A stretch of DNA of 46,426 bases. Origin: Deltaproteobacteria bacterium. Its GTDB lineage: Bacteria > Myxococcota_A > UBA9042 > DTJE01. This document shows, piece by piece, positions 33,583 to 46,426 of this stretch. A program made the translations under genes and the position numbers. Under the pieces are notes generated by a model, which saw only the letters and a program-made list of their open reading frames with translations, did no database searches and was not told where the DNA came from. Position 1 is the stretch's first letter. Each line of letters opens with the position of its first letter. Where the stretch lies: positions 1 through 46,426 of the forward strand of contig JADHTP010000001.1 of assembly GCA_016784945.1 (NCBI GenBank). Reading direction: 5' to 3'.

Positions 33583-33720
33583 GCCCGAACCAGGACAGGA
33601 CGCCGTTTGACGATGGACCTTTGACGTTAAACCGGGTAAATCCAACGACCGACGCTGTCTTATTGGTCCCAGAGCCCCTGTGATATCATCATCGGGCCCT
33701 TCGGTCTGGTGGAGGAAGAT

Positions 33721-34425
33721 ATGCCCCCGGGACCTGAAACCATCTATGGAATCAACGTGTTCGAACAGGTGATCCAGTCCCGGGGAATGGTCCTCGCGGT
33801 GCTGGTCCTTCTCATCGGACTGTCCGTGTTCTCGTGGTTTGTCATCGGCTACAAATGGCTGCTCTTCCGCCGGATCAGGAAGGATACCGAGCGGTTCTTC
33901 GACATCTTCTGGCGCTCCGAGACCCTGGATGCCGTGGAGAGCGCCAGTGAAGGCCTGCCCCGGTGCCCGACAGCCCGCCTCTTCCACGCCGCCTATACCG
34001 AGTTGAACCGGTTCAAGGGCACGGGCAAGGAGGACAGCGACGGGAGCACGCACCTGGGCGGCGGGTTCGAGAACATCGAGCGGGCCCTGAGGCGGGCGGT
34101 TCAGGACGAGATATCCCACCTCGAGCACCTGGTCGGATTCCTGGCGACCACGGGCTCGGCCGCCCCCTTCATCGGGCTCTTCGGCACGGTCTGGGGCATC
34201 ATGAACGCCTTCGCCTACATCCACCCCGATCGGCCCATCCTGGAGACGGTGACACCCCACATCGCGCAGGCCCTGGTGGCCACGGCCATCGGGCTGCTGG
34301 CGGCCATTCCCGCCGTGATGGCGTACAACTATTTCACCGGGCGGATCAGGAACTTCACCGTGGAGATGGACAACTTCTCCATCGATTTCCTGAATATCCT
34401 CAAGCGACACTTCTTCAAGGACTGA
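33721..34425 (+). CDS. tolQ: MotA/TolQ/ExbB-family proton channel, TolQ by context
   Basis: ATG at 33721 directly after GGAGGAAG (the track ORF starts at GTG 33709). Three TM segments are present. Characteristic segments are LATTGSAAPFIGLFGTVWGIMNAF and ALVATAIGLLAAIPAVMAYNYF. Confidence 0.85.
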   Translation: MPPGPETIYGINVFEQVIQSRGMVLAVLVLLIGLSVFSWFVIGYKWLLFRRIRKDTERFFDIFWRSETLDAVESASEGLPRCPTARLFHAAYTELNRFKGTGKEDSDGSTHLGGGFENIERALRRAVQDEISHLEHLVGFLATTGSAAPFIGLFGTVWGIMNAFAYIHPDRPILETVTPHIAQALVATAIGLLAAIPAVMAYNYFTGRIRNFTVEMDNFSIDFLNILKRHFFKD

Positions 34426-34427
34426 GC

Positions 34428-35012
34428 ATGCAGGGGCCCGGAAACAGAGGCGCCATGCTGTCCGAGATCAACGTGACGCCCCTGGTGGACGTCATGCTGG
34501 TCCTGTTGATCATCTTCATGATCTCGTCTTCCATCGAAACACTGCAGGTGCAGCAGGAAAAACAGCGAATCGAGAAGGAATTCGAAATCGACGACATGCC
34601 GGATCAGAAGGTGCCGGTCAACCTTCCCAAGACCAATGCCGAGCCGGTGAACCTGGCCGAGGACAGGAAACTGGTGATGACCATCAACGAGCGGGCCGAG
34701 TTCTTCATCGGGCCCACGAAGATCCTCTCGTGCCTGGACCTGGCGCCCCGTCTGGACAAGGTACTGGGGACACGCCGCTCGGCCTGGGGACCCAACGAGG
34801 ACAAGGCCTTCAAGCTCTGCCTCGATGCCCTGGAAGCCAAACTGTCGAAGAACGCCAAGCTCAAGGCCGACAAGGAGATGTATCTGAGGGCCGACGAAGG
34901 CATTCCCTATGGCATGGTCCTCAAGGTGATGGCCCGGATCCGGGCGTCGGGCGTGGCCAAGTTCGGGCTGGTGGCGGAGCCCGAAGAGGCCCCGAAAGGG
35001 GCGGCGCAGTGA
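34428..35012 (+). CDS. tolR: ExbD/TolR-family protein
   Basis: ATG at 34428, 2 nt after the tolQ stop. MQGPGNRGAMLSEINVTPLVDVMLVLLIIFMI is the canonical ExbD/TolR N-terminus. At 194 aa it is longer than typical. Confidence 0.85.
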   Translation: MQGPGNRGAMLSEINVTPLVDVMLVLLIIFMISSSIETLQVQQEKQRIEKEFEIDDMPDQKVPVNLPKTNAEPVNLAEDRKLVMTINERAEFFIGPTKILSCLDLAPRLDKVLGTRRSAWGPNEDKAFKLCLDALEAKLSKNAKLKADKEMYLRADEGIPYGMVLKVMARIRASGVAKFGLVAEPEEAPKGAAQ

Positions 35013-35905
35013 CCGATGCTCTTCTACAGACCCCCGGCAGGGACTTGGGCGGCGGTTGGGCGCTGTGGTTCGGCGGGACCGTGACCCTGGGCGTTCACGG
35101 GATCATCGTCACGGTGCTGGCCACGGCCACGGGCGCGGCGGACCTGGATGCCGTGACCTTTCCAGTGAGCCGCCGCCTGTGCGACGACATCCGCTGCGCC
35201 GAAAAGGCCCGCACGGACCGTCGACGGGGCCTGGACGAGGAAGCGGTGGACGTGGGAATCATCGAAGCCACGGTGATCCCCCGACTCGGTCTGGCGGAAC
35301 CCAAGGCTCGCAAGCTCCCCAAGCTGATCAAGTACGAACAGCCTGAAAAGATCGAGGAGGCCGTCAACGTCATCAGGGACAATCCCATCGTCAAGAAAAT
35401 CAAGCACAAGGACGTGAAGCCCAAGAAGGCGGAACTGGACCGCCGGCGCAAGAAGAAGTCCCTGGTGGCCATCCTGGGCTCGCCCGAAGACGACGACCCG
35501 CGCAAGCGAGCCACCTCCCTGGACCGAATCATCGGGTCAAAGTCAGGGATCGTCACCGGGGTGGGAACGGACAAGATCGAAGGCAACGTCTATGCCGGCA
35601 AGGTGGCGGGCGCCATCCACCAGCGGTTCACCGTGCCCCCGTTCCTGGGCGAGTCCGAATTGAAGAAACTTCGCATGAGGATCCGCATCACGCGGATGAA
35701 CGAGGGCGGACAGATCGTCAAATACAAGGTCATGAGGAAGTCCCGCACCCGGGCGTTCGACGAGGCGGCCATAAGGGCCATTCGTCAGTTCATGCCCAGT
35801 GAAGGCGGGGTGGCGCACCTGCCGGCCCCCGATGCCAGGACCCTCAAGTACATCAACGCCCGGGGCATGGTGGTGGACCTGGACGGGGCCCTGTTCCGGA
35901 AGTGA
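35009..35905 (+). CDS. TolA/TonB-like energy-transducer protein
   Basis: The GTG at 35009 overlaps the tolR stop (GTGA). There is an N-terminal TM segment WALWFGGTVTLGVHGIIVTVLATA and a charged Lys/Glu/Pro-rich linker. The C-terminal domain YAGKVAGAIHQRFTVPPFL...IRITRMNEGGQIVKYKVMRKSRTRAFDEAAIRAI resembles the TonB_C/TolA fold. Confidence 0.7.
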   Translation: MTDALLQTPGRDLGGGWALWFGGTVTLGVHGIIVTVLATATGAADLDAVTFPVSRRLCDDIRCAEKARTDRRRGLDEEAVDVGIIEATVIPRLGLAEPKARKLPKLIKYEQPEKIEEAVNVIRDNPIVKKIKHKDVKPKKAELDRRRKKKSLVAILGSPEDDDPRKRATSLDRIIGSKSGIVTGVGTDKIEGNVYAGKVAGAIHQRFTVPPFLGESELKKLRMRIRITRMNEGGQIVKYKVMRKSRTRAFDEAAIRAIRQFMPSEGGVAHLPAPDARTLKYINARGMVVDLDGALFRK

Positions 35906-37334
35906 TCGGGGGACTTGGGACATCAACGCAACGTCATCAGTCACGGGCCGAGGGGTCCTGTTCCAGGCCCTGGTGGTGCTCCTGCTCACGGCCCTTGCCC
36001 TAACAGCCATGGCCCGTGGCGGGGACCGCACCAGGCCCGTTCCCGACGACCCGAGATGCGGACGTTTCGGTTATGCCCGGAGCGTTCCCATGCCTCTCAT
36101 TCCCGTCGCCTGGCCCCTGATCCAGGACCTCAGCCGGCACGGAGAACTGGAAGGGGTGACCGAAAGGCTCTCCCGGGCCATCGCCAATGACCTGGGTCTC
36201 TCCGGCGTCTTCCTGATCCGCTCCCGCGAGTCCCGCCCCACGTCATCCATGATCACCTGGAACTCGGCGCTGGCCTTCGACTACCTGGGATGGCGACAGG
36301 CCAGGGCCTGGATGGTGGTGGTGGGCGAGGTCGCACCGAACGGTGATGGCAACCTGCGGGTCCGGCTGGATGGGTACCTGACCGAAGAAGCCGACATCCT
36401 CGGGATCGGAAACGCTGAAAAAGTGCTTTCCCCGGCAAACGTGGAGGACTTCGGTCACCAGTATGTCAACGCTCTGCTCCAGTGCATCACGGGACTGTCG
36501 GGCACCTTTGGCAGCCGGATCACCTATTCCCACCGGCCCCGCGCCGGTGCGGCCAAGGAAATCTTCTTCGTGGAGTTCGGGTCCACCGATCCGGTCCAGG
36601 TGAGCCGGGACGGGTCCGTGGCCATGCTGCCCGCCTGGGCCCCCGGTGGGGGTATCGCCTTCACCGGTTTCCAGGAGGGCAACCCTGACGTGTACCTGGC
36701 CGACTGCCCCGGATGCCCCCAAGGGGGGGTCCGGCAACTGTCCGCCCGACAGGGGATGAACTCGGGCATCGCGTTTTCCCCCAGGGGTGGTCTGGCGGCC
36801 CTCACCATGGCGCCAGACGGCAACCCGGACATCTACCTTATCGACGGGAAGACGGGGGACGCCATGGCGCGCCTGACCACCTCGGGGTCCATCGACACGA
36901 GCCCGGCCTGGTCACCGGACGGCCGGCGGATCGCCTTCGTTTCCGACCGTCGCGGGAGCCCCCAGATCTGGGTCATGAACTCCGATGGCACGGAGCAGCG
37001 GCCACTGCCCCTGTCCGGCAGTTACAACACCAGTCCGGACTGGTCCCCCGACGGCGCGGAGATCGTCTACCAGTGCCGGGTGGGCGGCAGACGCTTTACA
37101 ATAAAGGTCTACAATCTCCTGACCGGCGCGGTGAGAGTCCTCACGAGGGGCGCGAGCAGCGAGGAACCGTCCTGGTCACCGGACGCGCGAATGATCGTGT
37201 ACACGCACCAGGCCCGGGGTCCCAAGGAACTCTGGATGATGACCCGGGACGGAACCGGGGCCCGACCCCTCCTCGACGGCCCCGGGGAGTATTTCACGCC
37301 GGCCTGGGAGCGACCCTTCTCCGGGAACCGCTGA
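35799..37334 (+). CDS. tolB: Tol-Pal system beta-propeller protein TolB (start uncertain)
   Basis: Beta-propeller repeats are present: PAWAPGGGIAFTG, GNPDIYLIDGKTG, SPAWSPDGRRIAFVSDRRGSPQIWVMNSDGT, SPDWSPDGAEIVY and EPSWSPDARMIVY. The signal-like segment is VLFQALVVLLLTALALTAMA. No ATG/GTG/TTG lies in frame between the tolA-like stop (35905) and this segment. The options are the GTG at 35799 or the ATG at 35832 (about 100 nt overlap with the upstream gene), or the GTG at 35973 inside the hydrophobic core. Confidence 0.8.
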   Translation: MKAGWRTCRPPMPGPSSTSTPGAWWWTWTGPCSGSDRGTWDINATSSVTGRGVLFQALVVLLLTALALTAMARGGDRTRPVPDDPRCGRFGYARSVPMPLIPVAWPLIQDLSRHGELEGVTERLSRAIANDLGLSGVFLIRSRESRPTSSMITWNSALAFDYLGWRQARAWMVVVGEVAPNGDGNLRVRLDGYLTEEADILGIGNAEKVLSPANVEDFGHQYVNALLQCITGLSGTFGSRITYSHRPRAGAAKEIFFVEFGSTDPVQVSRDGSVAMLPAWAPGGGIAFTGFQEGNPDVYLADCPGCPQGGVRQLSARQGMNSGIAFSPRGGLAALTMAPDGNPDIYLIDGKTGDAMARLTTSGSIDTSPAWSPDGRRIAFVSDRRGSPQIWVMNSDGTEQRPLPLSGSYNTSPDWSPDGAEIVYQCRVGGRRFTIKVYNLLTGAVRVLTRGASSEEPSWSPDARMIVYTHQARGPKELWMMTRDGTGARPLLDGPGEYFTPAWERPFSGNR

Positions 37335-37346
37335 GGGAGGCCGACG

Positions 37347-38693
37347 GTGCGCCTGAAATGGCCCGATATCCTGAAACACGACGCAACCGGGAAGGCACAG
37401 CCCCTTTGGGTGCGGGCCGTGGTGGTGTCCGTATGGGCCCTGTGCGCCTCCCAGGTTCTGTGGACCGCCCGACGGTTCCTCGTGGAGGACCTCTGGCGAC
37501 CCGATCCCGGGGCCGATATCCTGGTGATGGCCGCGTTGGCCGCGGGATGCGCCCTGGCCCTGGCTTCAAGGAAACGGGCCGCCGCGGAACTGGCCGGTTG
37601 GGCGGCCCTGTCCGAAGTGGTCCTGGTGGACTGGACCCAGGGCGCCCGGCTCTGGTCCCGGGTGCCCGAGGCCGTCGGATGGCTGCTGGCGGCGGTCCTT
37701 CTCCTGCTGGCCGGCAAACGGATTTTCGTCAGAAAGGCCCCCCGGGTGCGGAACACTCTGGGGGACCTGGCAGGGGCATTGCGGGCGACACTCGCCCTCT
37801 TCCTGGTCCTCGATCTCGCCGCCGCCGCGTGGATCCACGGTAACAACCCGCGGGCCATGATCACCACGGAGCCACCCCCGACCATGACCACCGTGCAAGT
37901 GGAAGGCCTGCCCACGGTCGCCACCCTGGGCAGTTCACCGGCCAACTACGAACGGGATTTCCAGAAACCCTTCAGCCTGATCCTGGCCCATCGCTTCCAG
38001 GGCCGTCTCAACTTCGTAAGTTCCGGGGAAGGCGGCGTGAATTCGGACAAGCTGGTGGCCATGGCCCGCCGACTGGTGGACTCGGACCAACGGCCCGATG
38101 GCTTTCTGGTCTACGCCGGGCACGAGGATTTCGACGACTATGCCGGCCTCAAGTTCCTGGTGGACCTGGACCCCGTGGGGCGTTCCGAGGCGACCCGGGC
38201 CGCAGTGGCCTGGGTGCTCCGCCATTCGGCCCTTGTCAGATTGAGCCTCTTCCACCTGTGGATGTGGAACTTCGACTTCTTCGCCGCGCCCGCCGGGGAG
38301 CGGGCCCGGGCCGTATTCCCCCACATGCGGGACAACCTGGAGGCCATACTGGGACTCGCCGCGGACCACGGGATACGGGTTTTCGTGGTCACGCTCCACG
38401 CCGACTGGTCCCTCACGCCCCTGGGGCATCGCGAATACGTGGGACTGTTGAACGACTGGTACCGATCCCTTCTCGCACGGTACCCCCACGTGTCCCTGGT
38501 GGACTTCGAACAGGCCGCCCGGACGCGTTATCCCGACGGGCCGCTGGCCGATTGCGAACCCTTTGAAACCCCACTGCCCGGCAGGGACGGTTGCACCAAC
38601 GCCTTCCACATGAGTTCCGTGGGACACACCCTGATCGCCGACCTCGTGGAACCCGTCCTCGACCATTGGGTGGAGTCCAGGCAGTCGCCATGA
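37347..38693 (+). CDS. Membrane-anchored SGNH/GDSL-hydrolase-like protein
   Basis: GTG at 37347 after GGAGG, 12 nt after the tolB stop. It has about 4 N-terminal TM segments. The soluble domain has SGNH-like blocks: TLGSSPA (block I Ser), SSGEGGVNS (block II Gly), VYAGHEDF (block III) and NAFHMSSVGH (block V His). The blocks are degenerate, so the call is tentative. Confidence 0.4.
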   Translation: MRLKWPDILKHDATGKAQPLWVRAVVVSVWALCASQVLWTARRFLVEDLWRPDPGADILVMAALAAGCALALASRKRAAAELAGWAALSEVVLVDWTQGARLWSRVPEAVGWLLAAVLLLLAGKRIFVRKAPRVRNTLGDLAGALRATLALFLVLDLAAAAWIHGNNPRAMITTEPPPTMTTVQVEGLPTVATLGSSPANYERDFQKPFSLILAHRFQGRLNFVSSGEGGVNSDKLVAMARRLVDSDQRPDGFLVYAGHEDFDDYAGLKFLVDLDPVGRSEATRAAVAWVLRHSALVRLSLFHLWMWNFDFFAAPAGERARAVFPHMRDNLEAILGLAADHGIRVFVVTLHADWSLTPLGHREYVGLLNDWYRSLLARYPHVSLVDFEQAARTRYPDGPLADCEPFETPLPGRDGCTNAFHMSSVGHTLIADLVEPVLDHWVESRQSP

Positions 38694-38759
38694 GAAGGTC
38701 TGTGCCCGGGCTGGGCAATCCGGGTTAAGATGTCCCGGTGATTTTTTTGGGAGGCGGCG

Positions 38760-38921
38760 GTGGGCCGACGGCTCGATCTGGTCAGGGACCTGGGACGCAT
38801 GGTGTGGCGCCGCAAGCTCTGGATCATGGTCCCTTTCCTGTCGTTCCTGCTGTTCGGCATGTTCCTCCTGGTGGTGGTGGAGTCCCCCGCACTCCTCCCC
38901 TTCTTCTATGCCATTTTCTGA
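38760..38921 (+). CDS. 53-aa DUF5989/SxtK-like small membrane protein (below the ORF-track length cutoff)
   Basis: The GTG at 38760 is 5 nt after TGGGAGG, with an in-frame stop upstream at 38739-38741. The translation is (M)GRRLDLVRDLGRMVWRRKLWIMVPFLSFLLFGMFLLVVVESPALLPFFYAIF*. A basic amphipathic N-terminus with W-x-R-R-K-x-W, one TM segment and a C-terminal P-F-x-Y-x-x-F match my recollection of the DUF5989 family. That family is typically encoded beside carbamoyltransferase and SxtJ genes. Confidence 0.6.
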   Translation: MGRRLDLVRDLGRMVWRRKLWIMVPFLSFLLFGMFLLVVVESPALLPFFYAIF

Positions 38922-38934
38922 AGGCAGGTGACCC

Positions 38935-39717
38935 TTGGCGTCGGACGGAACGCTCGACACAGCCGTTGTTCTCTTTTCCGGCGGTCCCCGCTCCACCCTG
39001 GCGGCCATCCGTACGGGCCTGCGCTTTCAACGGGTTCACCTGGTCACCATGACGCACAAGGGGTATTCGGGCTCCACGCACCTGGCTGCCCAGGCCCAGG
39101 GGATCGCCCGCTTCTTTGGCGACCCGGACCGTTTCGTCCACCGGCGAGTCCCCGTGGACCGCCTCGTGAGACTGGTGACCAACGGTCATCGGTGGCGGAA
39201 TCTGAAACGACACGGACTGCTGTCCCTGGCGCCCTGCGGCCTGTGTCGACTGGCGGTCCACTGGCGCGCCCTGGTCTACTGCCTGGACAACGGCATCGGA
39301 CACCTGGCTGACGGCCTGGTTCCCGGGGTGGGCACGCGTCCCGGCGGCTATGGCCCCATCGGCCTTGACCGGCTGCGCGAGGTACACGGGGATTTCGGTG
39401 TCCATTACGAAACGCCCCTTTACGACCTGGGTGTTCAGGCCGAAAAGGAACTGGAAAGACTGCGTTTTACCGGTGCGCCGGGGGAAGGAACCGGGACCGG
39501 CGGCCACCACGGGTTCTGCAAACTGGAGAAACTGGATGCCCTGTTCAGGCGCGCCTGCATCGGCTATCAGCGTCTCGATCGCATGGAAAGCCGGATGACA
39601 GCCGTGGTGGACGACGGTCTGGCCCGCATCCGGGACTGGACCAGGGAATACGCGGAGTCCGGCGCACGGTCCCGACTCGCGGCCTGCCTCGACCAGGGGG
39701 GGCCATGGGCACCATGA
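38935..39717 (+). CDS. PP-loop (adenine nucleotide alpha-hydrolase superfamily) ATP-pyrophosphatase-like protein
   Basis: TTG at 38935 after AAGGCAGG, 260 aa. The N-terminus TAVVLFSGGPRSTLAA resembles the PP-loop SGGxDS, but with Arg in place of Asp. A downstream PCGLCRLAVHWRALVYCLDNGIGHLADG resembles the CxxC...(A/G)xGH segment of TilS/TtcA/QueC-type enzymes. Confidence 0.5.
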   Translation: MASDGTLDTAVVLFSGGPRSTLAAIRTGLRFQRVHLVTMTHKGYSGSTHLAAQAQGIARFFGDPDRFVHRRVPVDRLVRLVTNGHRWRNLKRHGLLSLAPCGLCRLAVHWRALVYCLDNGIGHLADGLVPGVGTRPGGYGPIGLDRLREVHGDFGVHYETPLYDLGVQAEKELERLRFTGAPGEGTGTGGHHGFCKLEKLDALFRRACIGYQRLDRMESRMTAVVDDGLARIRDWTREYAESGARSRLAACLDQGGPWAP

Positions 39718-40043
39718 GGACCGGCGCATACAGGGGGTGGGCTACGGCCGTCTGCCTTGTGGCGGTGATGCTGCCCTTTGGTCCACGGCTCGTCCTGTCC
39801 AGGGTCCTGGGCTTTCTGTCGAATCCATCTTCAGCCCGTTCTTCGCCCCTGTTCCAGCGCCACATGCGGCTGTGGAACCGGGTGGTGCTGGGCTTCGTGT
39901 TCGTTCTGGGCTTCCCCCTGGCGCGGATCTTCTATCCACTCTGGTCCCGATCACGCCTGTCCCCGGGACCGGGCGCCCATAGCTACTGGATCCGGCGCCC
40001 ACCGCCGGAGGAGTTCGAAAAAGGGATCAAGGACCCGTTCTGA
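39705..40043 (+). CDS. SxtJ-like small membrane protein
   Basis: The ATG at 39705 overlaps the PP-loop gene by 13 nt. It is 112 aa with two hydrophobic segments (WATAVCLVAVMLPFG and WNRVVLGFVFVLGFPLARIF). The C-terminal HSYWIRRPP fits my recollection of the SYW motif of the SxtJ family. It sits immediately upstream of the carbamoyltransferase. Confidence 0.5.
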   Translation: MGTMRTGAYRGWATAVCLVAVMLPFGPRLVLSRVLGFLSNPSSARSSPLFQRHMRLWNRVVLGFVFVLGFPLARIFYPLWSRSRLSPGPGAHSYWIRRPPPEEFEKGIKDPF

Positions 40044-40052
40044 GGTGACCGT

Positions 40053-41795
40053 GTGAACGTCCTGGGGCTCTCGTTCATGTACCACGACTCAGCCGCCTGC
40101 CTGCTGAAGGACGGCATCGTGGTGGCCGCGGCCGCAGAGGAACGATTCTCCCGCAAGAAGCACTCCCTGGATTTCCCCACCGGCGCCATCCGGTCGTGCC
40201 TATCCCTGGGCGATGTCCCCGTGGACGCCCTGGATGCCGTGGTGTTCTACGAAAAGCCTCTGCTCAAGTTCGAGCGCATCGTGACCATGAACTCGGGCGC
40301 CTTTCCCCGTGGCTTCGCCCTGTTCGCCGATGCCATGCCCCTGTGGCTCAAATACAAGCTGTTCATCCGAGAGATGATCCGCACCAACCTGGGGTATGGG
40401 GGCGACGTGTTCTTCGCCGACCACCACTATGCCCACGCATCCAGCGCGTTCTTCCCATCGGGCTTCGACGAGGCGGCCGTCCTGACCATGGACGGCGTGG
40501 GCGAGTGGGCCACCATGACCCGGGGACGGGGGGAGGGCAACCGGATCCACCTGACCCACGAACTCCGATACCCCCACAGCCTGGGGCTGCTGTACAGCAC
40601 CGTGACCGCCTTCCTGGGATTCAGGGTGAACAGCGGCGAAGGCAAGGTCATGGGCCTGTCGTCCTACGGGAATCCGACCTTCCGGGACCGACTGCTGGAC
40701 AGGGTGATCGACCTGCGGGACGACGGAAGCTTCCGCCTCAACCTGGACTATTTCTCGTTCCACCGGGACCTGGTGATGTACAGCCCCCGTTTCGTGGACG
40801 AGTTCGGCGAGCCCCGCAAGCCCGAATCGGACATCACGGCCCGGGACGAGGACCTGGCCTGCTCCCTCCAGGACGTGGTCAACACCGCGTGTCTCAATGC
40901 CGCCGCCCACGTGGGTCGTGAAACCGGTTCCCGGCGCCTCTGCATCGCCGGCGGCGTGGGCCTGAACAGCGTGGCCAACGGGCGGATCCTGGAAGAGGGG
41001 GACTTCGACGAGGTCTTCATCCAGCCCGCCTCCGGCGACGACGGCGGGGCCATCGGGAGTGCGCTGTTCTACTATCACCAGGTGCTCGGGAACCCCCGCC
41101 GGTGGCACATGGAACACGCCTTCCTGGGTTCCGCCGACGACCCCGACGAGGTTCAGCGGTTTCTGGATGCCAGGGGAATGCCCTACCGCCGGTTCGAACG
41201 GACAGAGGATCTCGTGGAACGGGCGGCCTCGGACCTGGCCCGAGGACGGATCGTGGGGTGGTGCCGGGGAAGGATGGAGTATGGCCCCCGGGCCCTGGGC
41301 AATCGGTCCATCCTGGCCAGCCCCACCATCGACGGAATGCAGGACGTGATGAACGAGCGGGTCAAGCACCGCGAGTCGTTTCGGCCCTTTGCGCCCGCCG
41401 TGCTGCTGGAACGGGTGGGGGAATTCTTCGACCCGCCCTTCGGAAGCCCATTCATGCTGCTCGTGGCTCGCACACGGCCCGACAAGAAAGACGTCCTGGG
41501 CGCCGTCACCCACGTGGACGGGACGGCGCGCCTCCAGACCGTGGACAAAACACACAATCCCCGTTTCCACGACCTGATCGCACGTTTCGGTGAAACGACC
41601 GGGGTCCCCGTGCTCCTGAACACCTCCTTCAACATCCGCGGGGAACCCATCGTCCGTGACTGCGGCGACGCCCTGACCTGTTTCCTGAACACGGGCATTG
41701 ACTGCCTGGCCCTGGAGGACTGTTACCTCGTCAAGGAAGAGGACCCCGGCGACGGGAAGACCCGGCGACTGCTGCCGCCCCTGGAGTGGGAATGA
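40053..41795 (+). CDS. NodU/CmcH/SxtI-family carbamoyltransferase
   Basis: GTG at 40053 after GAGGTG, 580 aa. (M)NVLGLSFMYHDSAACLLKDGIVVAAAAEERFSRKKH is the hallmark N-terminus. Also present are HHYAHASSAF, LTMDGVGEW, GKVMGLSSYG, GGVGLNSVANG, the C-terminal domain RMEYGPRALGNRSILA and LLNTSFNIRGEPIV. Confidence 0.9.
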   Translation: MNVLGLSFMYHDSAACLLKDGIVVAAAAEERFSRKKHSLDFPTGAIRSCLSLGDVPVDALDAVVFYEKPLLKFERIVTMNSGAFPRGFALFADAMPLWLKYKLFIREMIRTNLGYGGDVFFADHHYAHASSAFFPSGFDEAAVLTMDGVGEWATMTRGRGEGNRIHLTHELRYPHSLGLLYSTVTAFLGFRVNSGEGKVMGLSSYGNPTFRDRLLDRVIDLRDDGSFRLNLDYFSFHRDLVMYSPRFVDEFGEPRKPESDITARDEDLACSLQDVVNTACLNAAAHVGRETGSRRLCIAGGVGLNSVANGRILEEGDFDEVFIQPASGDDGGAIGSALFYYHQVLGNPRRWHMEHAFLGSADDPDEVQRFLDARGMPYRRFERTEDLVERAASDLARGRIVGWCRGRMEYGPRALGNRSILASPTIDGMQDVMNERVKHRESFRPFAPAVLLERVGEFFDPPFGSPFMLLVARTRPDKKDVLGAVTHVDGTARLQTVDKTHNPRFHDLIARFGETTGVPVLLNTSFNIRGEPIVRDCGDALTCFLNTGIDCLALEDCYLVKEEDPGDGKTRRLLPPLEWE

Positions 41796-43132
41796 GGAAG
41801 AAACCGGCCACCGGCGCCTTTGGACAGCAGCACGGAACCCGGCGATCGCGGTCCCTGCTGCGCGCTCTGTCGGGTCTCGAGGCCCCGGAGGTCATGGATC
41901 ACCAGTCCGACTTCCCAGTGGTCCTGAGCAAGGCCACGGGCGCCCGGGTCCAGGACGTGGACGGCAACCGCTATATCGACCTAGGCGGCTTCTTCGGCGT
42001 GGCCGTGGCGGGCCACCGGAACCGGGCCGTGGTGGCGGCCCTGCGTAAACAGGCGGGACGCCTGCTCCACGGCATGGGCGACGTACATCCCACGGACACC
42101 AAGGCCCGCTTCCTGTCCAGACTGTCCCGGTGCCTGCCCGCCTCCGACTATCGAGCGGTGTTGTCCCTCAACGGGTCCGACGCCGTGGAGTGCGCACTCA
42201 AGTTCGCCGCCGCGGCCACGGGCCGCCCCGGGGTCATCGCCTTTGAGGGCGCCTACCACGGCCTCACTGCCGGTGCCCTGGAGGTCACCGCCCACGACAT
42301 GTTCCGGCGACCCTTCGCGCCCACCCTGCAGGGACGCGGGTCCTTCGTGCCCTTCCCCACGGACGAGGGGGAGGCCCGGGCCGACAGGGTGCTGAAGACC
42401 ATCCGGGAAAAGGCCAGGTCGGGGGAAAAGAAGAGTCATCCCATAGGCGCCATCATCGTGGAGCCCATCCAGGGCCGGGGGGGAATCCGCGTCCCGCCTC
42501 CGGGATTCCTGGCCGACCTGTCGGACCTGGCGGGCCGGGAAGGCCTGGTGCTCATCGCGGACGAGATCTACTCCGGCGTGGGGCGGACCGGGACCTTCCT
42601 CGCCGGCGACCACGAGGGCCTGGTCCCCGACGTGGTCTGCCTGGGAAAGTCACTGGGCGGCGGGATGCCCCTGTCGGCCTGCCTGCTGAGGCAGCCCGTG
42701 GCCGAGGCGGTCCAGGGCACGCCCACGGAGGCGGTACATACTTCCACCTTCCTGGGCCATCCCCTGGCCTGCGCCGCGGGACTGGCCGTACTGGGCGAAA
42801 TGGAACGAAGGGACCTCTACACAGCGGCAACCCGGATCGGGACCTCCCTGATGTGGCGGGCCCGGTCCTGGAAGGAGCGCTTCGCCGGGGTGCGGGACGT
42901 ACGGGGCAGGGGCGCCATGGTGGGGGTGGAACTGGCCGACAGGGACGGCGGACCCGGCTCGGACGCCGCCATGGCGGTCTGCGACAGGGCCCTCAACCAG
43001 GGCGTGATCCTGCTCCCCGCCGGCGGGGAAGGGAACGTGCTGACCTTCACCCCTCCCCTGGTGATCACCGGAAAGGATCTGGACAGGGCCCTGGACACGG
43101 TGGAAGAAGGTCTGAAAGAGGTCCTGGACTGA
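41792..43132 (+). CDS. Class-III (omega-type) PLP-dependent aminotransferase
   Basis: The ATG at 41792 overlaps the carbamoyltransferase stop (ATGA). Motifs are GARVQDVDGNRYIDLGGFFGVAVAGHRN, NGSDAVECALKFA, AFEGAYHG, EPIQGRGG and LIADEIYSGVGRTGTFLAGDHEGLVPDVVCLGKSLGGGMPLSA (the Schiff-base Lys is in LGKSLGGG). Confidence 0.88.
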   Translation: MRKKPATGAFGQQHGTRRSRSLLRALSGLEAPEVMDHQSDFPVVLSKATGARVQDVDGNRYIDLGGFFGVAVAGHRNRAVVAALRKQAGRLLHGMGDVHPTDTKARFLSRLSRCLPASDYRAVLSLNGSDAVECALKFAAAATGRPGVIAFEGAYHGLTAGALEVTAHDMFRRPFAPTLQGRGSFVPFPTDEGEARADRVLKTIREKARSGEKKSHPIGAIIVEPIQGRGGIRVPPPGFLADLSDLAGREGLVLIADEIYSGVGRTGTFLAGDHEGLVPDVVCLGKSLGGGMPLSACLLRQPVAEAVQGTPTEAVHTSTFLGHPLACAAGLAVLGEMERRDLYTAATRIGTSLMWRARSWKERFAGVRDVRGRGAMVGVELADRDGGPGSDAAMAVCDRALNQGVILLPAGGEGNVLTFTPPLVITGKDLDRALDTVEEGLKEVLD

Positions 43133-43144
43133 CGGCGGGCGCCA

Positions 43145-44182
43145 ATGATCGATCCAACACTGGTGAATCGGATACGCGAGTTCATCGGGTCGGCACGGGA
43201 CCCGGATGACGGGGCCTTCGTGACCCTGTGCCGTGCCGTGGCCCGTGCCCAGGGCCGCCTTGGCGCCGGGTCCGGTCTCGAAGCCATCGAGCCGGTCCCC
43301 GAAGGGGCCTTCAAGCTGTCAGATGTGGCCCACTTCCCCAGGTCCCGGGCCCAGGCCACTTTTCGGACGTCGGGCACCACCACGGGACGGCCCGGCCTTC
43401 ACCTGGTGCGGGACATGGACCTCTACCGCCGTTCTGCCCTGGCGGGATTCGAGCGCTACCTCCTGTATCCCCCCCGGCCCGGCCGGTTCGTCAGCCTCAT
43501 TCCCCCGGCCCCACAACGGCCCGGCTCCTCCCTGTCCCACATGGTGTCCATGGTGATGGAGGCCTTTGCCGGTGAGCAGGCCACCTTCGCGAGGAAAGGC
43601 AACGCACTGGCTCTGACACCCCTGATGGCCGCGGTCCGGGAGGCGGTGGATTCCCGTGAACCACTGGTGCTCCTGGGAACAAGCCTGGATTTACTTACCC
43701 TGTTCGAGGCTCTGGAACATTCGAACACGGCAAACGTGGCCCTCCCACGGGGCAGCCGGGTCATGCACACCGGGGGTGACAAGGCCAGCGGGCGGGCCAT
43801 CACACGGGAGAAAATCTGGCAGGGTCTTGACCGTTATTTCCAGATCCCACCGGAGGACGTGGTGGAAGAGTTCGGCATGACCGAACTTTTGTCCCAGGCC
43901 TACGATGCGCCCCGCGTGGTCCCCGGACAGCGACGACTGGTGCCGGTCCCTTGGATGCGCACCCGCGTGCTGGATCCCACAACCTTCACCGAGGTGGATT
44001 CGGGCAGCCGCGGCCTGCTGTGCCACTACGACCTGGCCAACTGCCACACAGCGGTGGCCGTGCTCACCAGCGACCTGGGGCTGCGGATCAACGAAGGCTT
44101 CAGTCACATCCACCGGGTGCCCGGGTCCACGCCCAGGGGCTGCTCACACGAGGCCGCTCGAGGGGTTCGTACCCATGTCTGA
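43145..44182 (+). CDS. LuxE-like acyl-protein synthetase (adenylate-forming, PaaK/LuxE clade)
   Basis: ATG at 43145, 345 aa. The TSGTTG-type motif is FRTSGTTTGRPGLHLVRDMDLY. Also present are GGDKASGR and EEFGMTELLSQAY. Length and motif order fit the LuxE family as I remember it. Its end overlaps the next gene by 8 nt. Confidence 0.6.
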   Translation: MIDPTLVNRIREFIGSARDPDDGAFVTLCRAVARAQGRLGAGSGLEAIEPVPEGAFKLSDVAHFPRSRAQATFRTSGTTTGRPGLHLVRDMDLYRRSALAGFERYLLYPPRPGRFVSLIPPAPQRPGSSLSHMVSMVMEAFAGEQATFARKGNALALTPLMAAVREAVDSREPLVLLGTSLDLLTLFEALEHSNTANVALPRGSRVMHTGGDKASGRAITREKIWQGLDRYFQIPPEDVVEEFGMTELLSQAYDAPRVVPGQRRLVPVPWMRTRVLDPTTFTEVDSGSRGLLCHYDLANCHTAVAVLTSDLGLRINEGFSHIHRVPGSTPRGCSHEAARGVRTHV

Positions 44183-45374
44183 CGTGCCACGGCCCGAACC
44201 GCTGCCTCCCCTCTCCGAGGAGGAAATCGCAGGCAGGCTCTTCGCCCTGCGGGAACGCTGGCGCAACCCCGGAAAGGAAGCCGGCCAAAAGGGCATGGCC
44301 ACCCTGTCACGCCAGACCGGATTCCCCCCTGCGCACGTTCACGAAGCCCTGAAGAGGGCCTTTGCGCCCTTCACTCAACGCTCCATCCGTCGCCTCGTCC
44401 GCCTTGGCAGGGGACCTCGCGCCGGCTCACCGTGGCTCCTGGCCATCCTGGCGGGCCGGATCCCCGCCGTGGCTGTCAACGCCCTGTTCTGGTCCCTGGC
44501 CGCCCGGGTGCCCCTGGCCGTGAAATCCCCGGGCGCCCTGGACGCCTTCACGGCCCTGCTGGTCCGGTCCCTGGCCCGCATGGGGGGATCTCTGGGCCCC
44601 TGCGTCACCCACCTGACATTCCCTTCCGGCACCGGTCCCATGGCACGGCTGGTGGAGTCGGCGCCCCTGTGCCTGGCCTACGGCAGCGACCACACATTCC
44701 GCGCCGTGACGGAGGCTCGCCGGGGGCGTCCCACGCTGGGAGGTGGGCACCGCGAGTCCTTCGTTGTCGTGTTCCGGGAGGCCCTGGAACGGGACGGGGT
44801 GTCCCACCTCGCCCGCGCCATCGCCCGGGACAGCGCCGTCTATGACCAGGACGGCTGCCTTTCACCCCAGGCGGTGCTGGTGGAGGAAGGGGGCGGGACG
44901 AGCCCGAGGGAACTGGCCCGACGAATTCACGACGAGCTGGTCGGAATGGCCAGGCCCCTGCCACCGTCGATACCCCCGCTGGAGGAGGCCGCTCGGCTCC
45001 GGATCTTTGCCGAGGAGTGCCGGTACACGGCGCGGGCTTCGGGTGGGCGGGTCTTTCCCGAAAGAGGCGCACCGATCCCCCTGGTGGCGGTGCTCCCGGG
45101 CCAGCCCTACCGGACGGGACCGGGTCATCGCGTCCTCCAGGTACTGCCCTTTTGCGACGAGCCCGATCCCGCCCGCCTTCTTCCGTCGATGTCGGGCCAT
45201 GTTCAAGGGGTGGCAGTGGCCGGCCCGAGGGCTCGCCTGGAATCTCTGTTCGAGGCCGATCCCGGCTACCGGGCCGGATACGTCTGTGCCCCGGGCCGGC
45301 TGCAGCGTCCCCCGGCCGTGTGGGCCGAGAACGGCATCATCATCACAAAGGAACTGGCCCGCCTGGCTCGCTGA
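44175..45374 (+). CDS. LuxC-like acyl-CoA (acyl-protein) reductase
   Basis: ORF 43905..45374 trimmed to the ATG at 44175 (MSDVPRPEPLPPLSEEEIAGRL...), 399 aa. LAGRIPAVAVNALFWSLAARVPLAVKSP resembles the LuxC G-N-[IV]-P...K-x-[SP] segment. AVYDQDGCLSPQAVLVEEGG supplies a candidate catalytic Cys in a Q-x-x-C-x-S-P context. The pairing with the LuxE-like gene supports the call. Confidence 0.6.
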   Translation: MSDVPRPEPLPPLSEEEIAGRLFALRERWRNPGKEAGQKGMATLSRQTGFPPAHVHEALKRAFAPFTQRSIRRLVRLGRGPRAGSPWLLAILAGRIPAVAVNALFWSLAARVPLAVKSPGALDAFTALLVRSLARMGGSLGPCVTHLTFPSGTGPMARLVESAPLCLAYGSDHTFRAVTEARRGRPTLGGGHRESFVVVFREALERDGVSHLARAIARDSAVYDQDGCLSPQAVLVEEGGGTSPRELARRIHDELVGMARPLPPSIPPLEEAARLRIFAEECRYTARASGGRVFPERGAPIPLVAVLPGQPYRTGPGHRVLQVLPFCDEPDPARLLPSMSGHVQGVAVAGPRARLESLFEADPGYRAGYVCAPGRLQRPPAVWAENGIIITKELARLAR

Positions 45375-45777
45375 CCGGCCCGAGGACACCATCCAGAACC
45401 ATCGGCGAATTCCCCGAAGCGTCGTCCAGATCAATGGACACCATCTCATCGTGGAACCGCAAGCTCACCGACCATCGGCTTATCAGACCCAGTTCATCGA
45501 TCTCGATCCGGAGTTCGCCGGGCGTTTCCCATCGCCCCCGCGCCCGGGCCAGGGCGATGCCCACCAGTGTCCCGGTGATGCTCTTGGTGACCGATGCCAC
45601 GTCGTGCAGGTCATCGGGACCAAAGGGGTGAAAGGCCGCATCCAGGTCCACGGTTCCTTGGCGAACCACCAGGACGCCATGAACCGGCAGGCCCTCGTCC
45701 ATGACGGTCTCCAGGAACCGGGCCAGCCGGACGGGATCCACGCCCAGGGCTTCGGGGGTGGAACGAGGCCATTCCAC
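45343..45777 (-). pseudogene. Truncated serine hydrolase / beta-lactamase-family remnant
   Basis: The GTG at 45777 opens EWPRSTPEALGVDPVRLARFLETVMDEGLPVHGVLVVRQGTVDLDAAFHPFGPDDLHDVASVTKSITGTLVGIALAR. This is the typical N-terminal third of a class-C beta-lactamase/PBP-like esterase, including the SxxK motif (SVTK). Recognisable similarity stops after about 80 residues. The ORF ends at 144 aa inside the 3' end of the LuxC-like gene, against an expected length above 350 aa. Confidence 0.5.
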
Positions 45778-45952: not shown

Positions 45953-46426
45953 CTATCCACTCCAGGGGTAGAGGCCGTTGGAGATCTCGATCTGGTATGA
46001 CTCGCAGATGGCGGGCTTGGTCTTGTCCCGCGAGATCTTGATGTAGTACTTCGCCGAGTTGTTCGAACAGGAATTGACGCCCGGCGCCGCCTCTCCGGGA
46101 CAGGATCCACACTCCTGGGGATCGCCCGTGGTGGCGATGCAGTGGTTGTAATCCGGGGGTGGCCCGCAACTGTTGGAGGCCGTTGAGCACCCGCACTCGC
46201 CCTTGCCGCCGGCGTAGAAGTTGGTCGCCCACTCGGAGATGTTGCCTTCCTTGCAGATGTTGTTCGTGTCGGCGCAGGACCCCCGGTACACGTCCAGCAC
46301 GAAACTGTTGCCCGGGTTCTGGGTGAACACGACCTTCATGTTGTAGAGGTCGCAGGCGTTCGGCTCGTTCTTCCAGGTGGGGTCCGAGGCGTCCACTACG
46401 TACCAGTCATCGTCGTCGTTGGGCAC
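45953..46426 (-). CDS. C-terminal part of a secreted Cys-rich protein with a PPC-like (pre-peptidase C-terminal) domain; 5'-truncated by the window edge
   Basis: The ORF runs off the window. DDDDWYVVDASD...FVLDVYRGSC...AKYYIKISRDKTKPAICESYQIEISNG resembles the D-x-D-W-Y ... Y-Y-[IV]-x-[IV] ... Y-x-[IL]-x-[IV] jelly-roll pattern. A Cys-rich insertion is present (GECGCSTASNSCGPPPDYNHCIATTGDPQECGSCPGE). Confidence 0.4.
   Translation of the reverse strand: MPNDDDDWYVVDASDPTWKNEPNACDLYNMKVVFTQNPGNSFVLDVYRGSCADTNNICKEGNISEWATNFYAGGKGECGCSTASNSCGPPPDYNHCIATTGDPQECGSCPGEAAPGVNSCSNNSAKYYIKISRDKTKPAICESYQIEISNGLYPWSG

Follow-up and report, generated by a model that had tools for sequence, protein, structure and literature searches.

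The window analysed here, a stretch of 46,426 nt with a GC content of ~65%, covers positions 1 to 46,426 of contig JADHTP010000001.1 from a Deltaproteobacteria bacterium assigned to Myxococcota_A. Towards its end lie three consecutive plus-strand genes, hereafter the trio, which encode a class-III (omega) aminotransferase (41792..43132; Pfam PF00202, Aminotran_3), a LuxE-like adenylating acyl-protein synthetase (43145..44182; PF04443) and a LuxC-like thioester reductase (44175..45374; PF05893). The initial annotation of the window joined the trio to an adjacent carbamoyltransferase (CT) and a PP-loop-like protein in one pathway, by which a fatty acid would be converted into an alkyl-urea or alkyl-guanidine head group. 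All of the genes that it named are intact open reading frames (ORFs) on the plus strand, and the PP-loop-like and CT genes sit upstream of 41792-45374, the interval to which the pathway had been assigned. The tight coupling that it described is borne out by measurement: the CT stop codon overlaps the aminotransferase start (ATGA), the aminotransferase and LuxE-like genes are 12 nt apart, and the LuxE-like and LuxC-like genes overlap by 8 nt. It was also right that luxA, luxB and luxD are missing; none adjoins the trio, whose neighbours are a CT-containing cassette and a β-lactamase-family gene remnant.

The cassette comprises five plus-strand genes (37347 to 41795) and separates the trio from tolQ-tolR-tolA-tolB (33709..37334, plus strand; Pfam ExbD, TonB_2, TolB_N and PD40). 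Its first gene encodes an SGNH/GDSL-like membrane protein of 448 aa (37347..38693), for which the GDSL match is weak in the window (E 0.011); the orthologue at locus L018 matches Lipase_GDSL_2, and the gene also stands first in the cassettes at L008-L011, L018 and L020. The second encodes a 53-aa membrane peptide of the SxtK-type family DUF5989 (38760..38921; PF19451, 28 bits against a cut-off of 27), located near CT and 57-64% identical to its copies in other cassettes; a literature search found no paper on DUF5989. A 260-aa protein with a PP-loop fold, recognised by Foldseek and carrying the degenerate motif SGGPRS, follows (38935..39717). The fourth product is a 112-aa membrane protein (39705..40043) that is conserved in seven cassettes and occupies the slot held by SxtJ in other CT loci. 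Its identification as SxtJ was rejected: no Pfam SxtJ match (PF19588) was obtained for five copies, and hhalign comparison with the true SxtJ of genome G000 returned a probability of 1.5%. The fifth gene encodes the NodU/CmcH/TobZ-type CT (40053..41795), with both Pfam domains.

Among the trio enzymes, the aminotransferase matches PF00202 with 310 bits over profile positions 5-400 of 403 and reaches no NCBIfam equivalog cut-off; the solved structures closest to it are those of GabT, PuuE and acetylornithine aminotransferases. The LuxE-like protein scores 37.1 bits against PF04443 (cut-off 24.9) and matches the LuxE chain of PDB 7xc6 (7xc6_E) in phmmer at E 3.6e-8, and it falls far short of the NCBIfam equivalog NF052244 (24.3 versus 550 bits). 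Four of its motifs are invariant in 24 homologues: the SGT P-loop (S76-G77-T78), GGxK (T209-G210-G211-x-K213), EYGMTE (E242-x-G244-M245-x-E247) and a C-terminal RGCS (G332-C333-S334). From its position, C333 is inferred to be the counterpart of the acylated cysteine of LuxE, the alignment with 7xc6 stopping before this residue. The LuxC-like protein matches PF05893 (83.8 bits; cut-off 21), fails the equivalog NF052251 (15.7 versus 750 bits) and has no phmmer match in the PDB. Its motif DQxGC(L/V)SP, which contains Cys228, is unchanged across 15 trio-type sequences that span several phyla.

Linkage of the three genes, whose order varies, is seen in Myxococcota, Methylomirabilota, Binatia, Nitrospirota and Chlamydiae. 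This linkage across phyla, together with the invariant motifs, supports well the chemistry of acid to aldehyde to amine. In the proposed sequence, a carboxylic acid would be adenylated by the LuxE-like enzyme and bound through a thioester to the C-terminal cysteine of that enzyme. Cys228 of the LuxC-like enzyme would then receive the acyl group, reduction with NAD(P)H would give an aldehyde, and the aminotransferase would turn this aldehyde into a primary amine. The initial annotation had already proposed these two steps, and they are upheld by a conserved unit, by invariant catalytic motifs and by the precedents of TabE/TabA and TamH. What did not stand is the single pathway in which they were placed: the urea or guanidine head group is not supported, since the genes belong to two modules.

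Variants of the LuxE-LuxC arrangement were seen elsewhere. At L001 (11139-12786), a hypothetical gene and a PhdYeFM/ParE toxin-antitoxin pair lie between the LuxE-like and LuxC-like genes. Genome G000 has a second LuxE/LuxC pair (G000:C152:5634-8404; 32% and 24% identity) with no aminotransferase, and its upstream ORFs, judged by eye, resemble B12/radical-SAM, HMGL-like, LeuD-like and flavin reductase genes. This pair looks like a separate system, because pairs 55-62% identical to it occur in the QueC-positive genomes G046 and G058. The recurrent neighbours of Gemmatimonadota LuxE-LuxC pairs, judged by reading the cluster representatives, resemble an ABC transporter, a GcvT-like protein, an amidohydrolase and a TgpA-type transglutaminase, an arrangement that seems to reflect lineage synteny and has no bearing on function.

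The phyletic distribution of the trio points to its substrate. Two sets of genomes were surveyed: 61 of the class, and 41 Methylomirabilota relatives of one genome. Three genes of queuosine synthesis are nearly universal in the class, with TGT in 59/61 genomes, QueD in 60/61 and QueE in 59/61 (best NCBIfam model TIGR04349), and QueA and QueG were present in all five family genomes tested, including G000. Full-length QueC was found in only 10/61 and QueF in 2/61. An orthologue of the trio aminotransferase occurs in 48/61 genomes and in none of the ten that are QueC-positive; the 13 genomes that lack it are these ten and three more, among them two with a completeness of 62% and 80%. This exclusivity gives a Fisher p of 3e-9 by genome. 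Counted by family, the split is 13 versus 4 with zero overlap (p = 4e-4; the families are related).

The same pattern recurs outside the class. Among the Methylomirabilota relatives, canonical QueC was found in 10 and the trio in 14, again with zero overlap (p = 0.0075), and queG lies directly upstream of the trio at four loci (L044, L048, L071 and L080) of one Methylomirabilota lineage. TGT and a QueE-family match are present in each of five LuxE/LuxC carriers from other phyla, the QueE-family match being strong in three and weak or partial in the other two; a QueC match is missing in three of the five, divergent in one and split in one. A complete Candidatus Manganitrophus genome carries LuxE-LuxC-aminotransferase, and its sole QueC-like match (G062:C1:3179662-3180272) is split over two overlapping frames, possibly because it is a pseudogene or because of a sequencing error.

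Genomes that produce 7-carboxy-7-deazaguanine (CDG) and lack QueC thus coincide with those that hold the trio, and the product predicted for the trio from CDG is preQ1 (7-aminomethyl-7-deazaguanine). It is proposed that CDG, the product of QueE, would pass through 7-formyl-7-deazaguanine to preQ1, bypassing QueC and QueF. To this assignment of substrate and product, and to a new route to preQ1 that needs neither enzyme, we attach a probability of roughly 0.5 on the strength of sequence comparisons. The fatty acid named as substrate in the initial annotation found no evidence in its favour, and the phyletic data point to CDG instead. A literature search for a LuxE/LuxC route to preQ1 returned no paper.

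Several observations weigh against a role for the trio in preQ1 synthesis. The characterised LuxE and LuxC act on fatty acids, and the match of the trio proteins to them is distant, with equivalog scores far below the cut-offs. Genomic proximity is scarce: at 76/80 loci, searches reaching 8 kb from the LuxE homologue found no queuosine gene; queE, queD, queC and tgt were found beside LuxE homologues at 0/80 loci (tblastn, even at E < 0.05); and LuxE/LuxC genes lie within 1.5 kb of queE at 0/30 Gemmatimonadota queE loci. An Rfam scan detected no preQ1 riboswitch in the window or in seven trio loci. Because the genomes are related, the complementarity between trio and QueC may reflect only a few evolutionary events.

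Further points against this role concern the canonical genes and the trio itself. QueF is missing as well from most QueC-positive genomes of the class, and none is detectable in those of families f11 and f3. One QueC copy belongs to an island (L101, G050:C8, 4076-8928) with queC, a queE-like gene, queD, folE2, DUF6884 and a TGT-like gene (434 aa), which looks like a dpdA-type 7-deazaguanine DNA-modification system. Trio-positive Methylomirabilota retain a divergent QueC-like ORF. Finally, the LuxC-like gene of family f7 is not located beside its aminotransferase-LuxE pair; Pfam searches of the genes that flank this pair were uninformative.

The strongest alternative is that the trio makes an amine from another acid, for example a fatty amine from a fatty acid, with a role in the cell envelope tied to Tol; the cassette would still be an independent insertion. 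Fatty acids are the only substrates of characterised LuxE and LuxC, and the combination of a thioester reductase with a transaminase is known from TabE/TabA to yield alkylamines. In the family of the window, moreover, the trio runs in the direction of tolQRAB and follows it at close spacing, and in genome G009 the junction between tolB and the aminotransferase gene carries envelope glycan enzymes (a MurG-like GT28 protein and a GT4 protein). The Tol linkage is, however, limited to this family, and the neighbours of the trio differ elsewhere. The surroundings of the trio lack acyl-carrier, thioesterase and lipid genes, and a fatty amine would leave both the exclusivity with QueC in two phyla and the adjacency of queG unexplained. 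We consider this alternative possible and the less probable of the two.

A place for the trio in amino-acid or polyamine metabolism appears improbable. Here, a side-chain carboxylate would be converted to a semialdehyde and then transaminated, as by ArgB/ArgC/ArgD or in the LysW pathway. The logic of the trio mirrors ornithine and lysine synthesis, and the best named models and solved relatives of its aminotransferase are acetylornithine, GABA and putrescine aminotransferases. All of the equivalog scores are nevertheless far below the cut-offs, and G000 has other class-III aminotransferases that could serve those pathways. The phyletic pattern of the trio, in turn, tracks QueC and no amino-acid pathway tested (argB, argC, proA and proB were outside the test).

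In contrast with the trio, which is conserved as a unit, the association of trio and cassette is local. The cassette is present with the same gene order at seven other loci (L008, L009, L010, L011, L018/L019 and L020), where its flanks are unrelated (purL, a metH-like gene, eutBC and a pseudouridine synthase gene). In G003 and G010, cassette and trio are on separate contigs, the trio lying at L012 and L013. Conversely, nearly all relatives have the trio and no cassette. By LuxE-like protein, the closest long relatives of the window are L007 (60% identity), L003 and L015, and in each of these the aminotransferase gene comes straight after tolB. The LuxE-like relatives share a synteny of radical SAM, RNase II and lgt genes followed by tolQRAB, and the tolQRAB genes of L007 are 61-84% identical to those of the window. 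On this synteny, a position behind tolQRAB is ancestral for the trio. Within the same genus, G001 (L131) also has tolB, aminotransferase and LuxE genes with nothing between tolB and the aminotransferase gene.

The CT-aminotransferase junction is common only to L017 (83% nucleotide identity), from which it follows that the cassette entered the tolB/aminotransferase junction in a narrow lineage. No flanking direct repeats that could be target-site scars were seen around the cassette, and a composition scan of the window showed no anomaly there. The same junction in G009 (L014, G009:C10, 3993-7200) is occupied by two genes, one MurG-like (GT28, with HEAT repeats) and the other of GT4 (MraY/WecA type), so it tolerates insertions and appears to be a hot spot. 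Cassette and trio are best explained as two independent modules in one operon behind tolQRAB, juxtaposed by chance after insertion of the cassette between tolB and the aminotransferase gene. The translational coupling of CT to the aminotransferase in this lineage speaks against full independence and may signify a local functional link.

The CT contains both a Kae1-like N-terminal domain (Carbam_trans_N, PF02543, 257 bits) and a YrdC-like C-terminal domain (Carbam_trans_C, PF16861, 231 bits). Its solved relatives NovN, GdmN and TobZ (E 1e-81 to 1e-107) are all O-carbamoyltransferases. Orthologues 69-74% identical to it occur in cassettes on other contigs of G003, G008, G010 and G013, and paralogues are numerous in the class, with up to nine matches per genome; because of these many paralogues, the co-occurrence of CT and trio says nothing. 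From gene content, motifs, modularity and phyletic patterns, we infer the chemistry and the substrates of both modules. For the cassette, the most likely target of CT would be a hydroxyl on an acceptor that is probably associated with the membrane or envelope and has no relation to the trio product. The ureido step that the initial annotation gave to CT is thus disfavoured: CT belongs to a separate cassette found intact at loci with no trio beside it, and its solved relatives carbamoylate hydroxyls. That the cassette further modifies a 7-deazapurine in this lineage is highly unlikely. A true SxtJ-family protein (PF19588, 45 bits) comes after a paralogous CT of G000 (G000:C93:12573-14822, minus strand; ~50% identity), at a locus where neither a PP-loop gene nor an obvious DUF5989 peptide was seen.

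The PP-loop protein of the window reaches no sequence-profile cut-off in Pfam or NCBIfam, and its assignment comes from structure. With a model of medium confidence (pLDDT 70), the best Foldseek matches were YcfA (E 7.5e-9), QueC and LarE, and TtuA was also matched; for YcfA and QueC, the E-values range from 7.5e-9 to 4e-6 and the TM scores from 0.49 to 0.57. Argininosuccinate synthase was a weaker match (TM 0.39-0.44), below both YcfA and QueC. The candidate description as argininosuccinate-synthetase-like was rejected, there being no Pfam match and the fold lying nearer the generic YcfA/QueC type.

The window copy has also diverged from its own family. Its motif SGGPRS has lost the canonical Asp of SGGxDS, which orthologues retain as SGGSDS or SAGSDS, and further conserved blocks are lost. 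It is 35-42% identical to orthologues that are 51-78% identical among themselves. As the neighbouring CT is evenly 69-73% identical, this divergence suggests relaxed or changed constraint on the PP-loop gene. A word-based homologue search with this diverged protein found only four matches. In G000, a paralogue of 31% identity (G000:C38:2884-3753, minus strand) has the canonical SGGVDS, and its neighbours, judged by eye, are cysteine desulfurase-like and DsrE-like genes, which hint at a sulfur-transfer role for the PP-loop family. The guanidino or amidine step previously attributed to the PP-loop protein therefore loses its footing, as the protein belongs to the same separate cassette and the window copy is without the canonical Asp.

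One integrated pathway, from fatty acid through aldehyde, amine and N-carbamoyl (urea) product to a guanidine or amidine formed by the PP-loop enzyme, can claim that the genes are contiguous and overlap at the CT-aminotransferase boundary both here and at L017, and that PP-loop enzymes adenylate carbonyl or ureido oxygens, with argininosuccinate synthase among the weaker fold matches; it is nonetheless very improbable, as cassette and trio are conserved separately and are unlinked in the other genomes examined apart from L017, the solved CT relatives are O-carbamoyltransferases, and the PP-loop copy has the motif SGGPRS, sits on an accelerated branch and has a fold nearer YcfA and QueC than argininosuccinate synthase.

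Outside both modules, and marking their downstream edge, lies the β-lactamase-family gene remnant (144 aa; 45343..45777, minus strand). L016 has the intact form of this gene, with 481 aa; of these, the remnant preserves the N-terminal 78 aa and the C-terminal 68 aa, having lost ~1 kb by an in-frame internal deletion. In both the window and L016, the 3′ end of the β-lactamase gene overlaps the end of the LuxC-like gene. A cysteine-rich ORF (45953-46426, minus strand) runs off the end of the window, and counterparts 73-93% identical to it occupy the same position downstream of the trio at L007 and L016.

If the trio makes preQ1, queuosine synthesis would have a second, chemically different branch without a nitrile intermediate. 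This branch would supply what is missing in the many bacteria with QueD, QueE, TGT, QueA and QueG but no QueC, and would account for the presence of QueD and QueE without QueC in several phyla. Genome annotation would then judge queuosine self-synthesis versus salvage differently, and LuxE/LuxC-type reductases would be seen to act on a purine-like acid rather than on lipids. At this locus, a shared pathway cannot be read from close packing, nor even from translational coupling. The CT cassette is a portable unit and, in a class so rich in CT matches, is worth a study of its own.

Several known systems offer parallels. The LuxC-LuxE reductase of Photobacterium phosphoreum (PDB 7XC6) likewise combines an adenylating synthetase bearing a C-terminal cysteine with a reductase of aldehyde dehydrogenase fold bearing an active-site cysteine. 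Compared with the enzymes of luminous bacteria, the trio is very distant in sequence, is coupled to an aminotransferase, occurs without luxA, luxB or luxD, and probably has a substrate other than a fatty acid. Routes to alkylamines by a thioester reductase and an omega-transaminase are described for TabE/TabA (tambjamine BE-18591), TamH and PigE (bioRxiv 10.1101/2025.08.11.669332). These share with the trio the reaction order of activated carboxylate to aldehyde to primary amine. They act on fatty acyl-ACP or acyl-CoA in natural-product clusters, whereas the trio is housekeeping-like, nearly class-wide and free of surrounding natural-product genes.

Canonical preQ1 synthesis, as described in PMC5372724, proceeds by QueC, a PP-loop nitrile synthetase, and then QueF, a nitrile reductase. 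The route proposed for the trio would have the same substrate, CDG, and the same product, preQ1, in genomes where QueD, QueE, TGT, QueA and QueG are present. It would differ in having no nitrile intermediate and in using other enzyme families; in the genomes searched, the trio and canonical QueC never occur together.

For the cassette, the nearest parallels are the carbamoylation genes sxtI-sxtJ-sxtK-sxtL of cyanobacterial sxt clusters, in which SxtL is a GDSL/SGNH-type protein (PMC2679770). Like sxtI/K/L, and in its CT like TobZ, NovN and GdmN, the cassette has a CT of the same family, an SxtK-type DUF5989 peptide and a GDSL/SGNH-type protein. It departs from the sxt clusters in that its 112-aa protein is not detectably SxtJ, in its extra PP-loop gene and in the lack of other sxt genes. 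The PP-loop protein itself shares a fold and a CxxC segment with YcfA of Erwinia amylovora and with QueC; it differs from both in having SGGPRS in place of SGGxDS and in matching no profile at cut-off.

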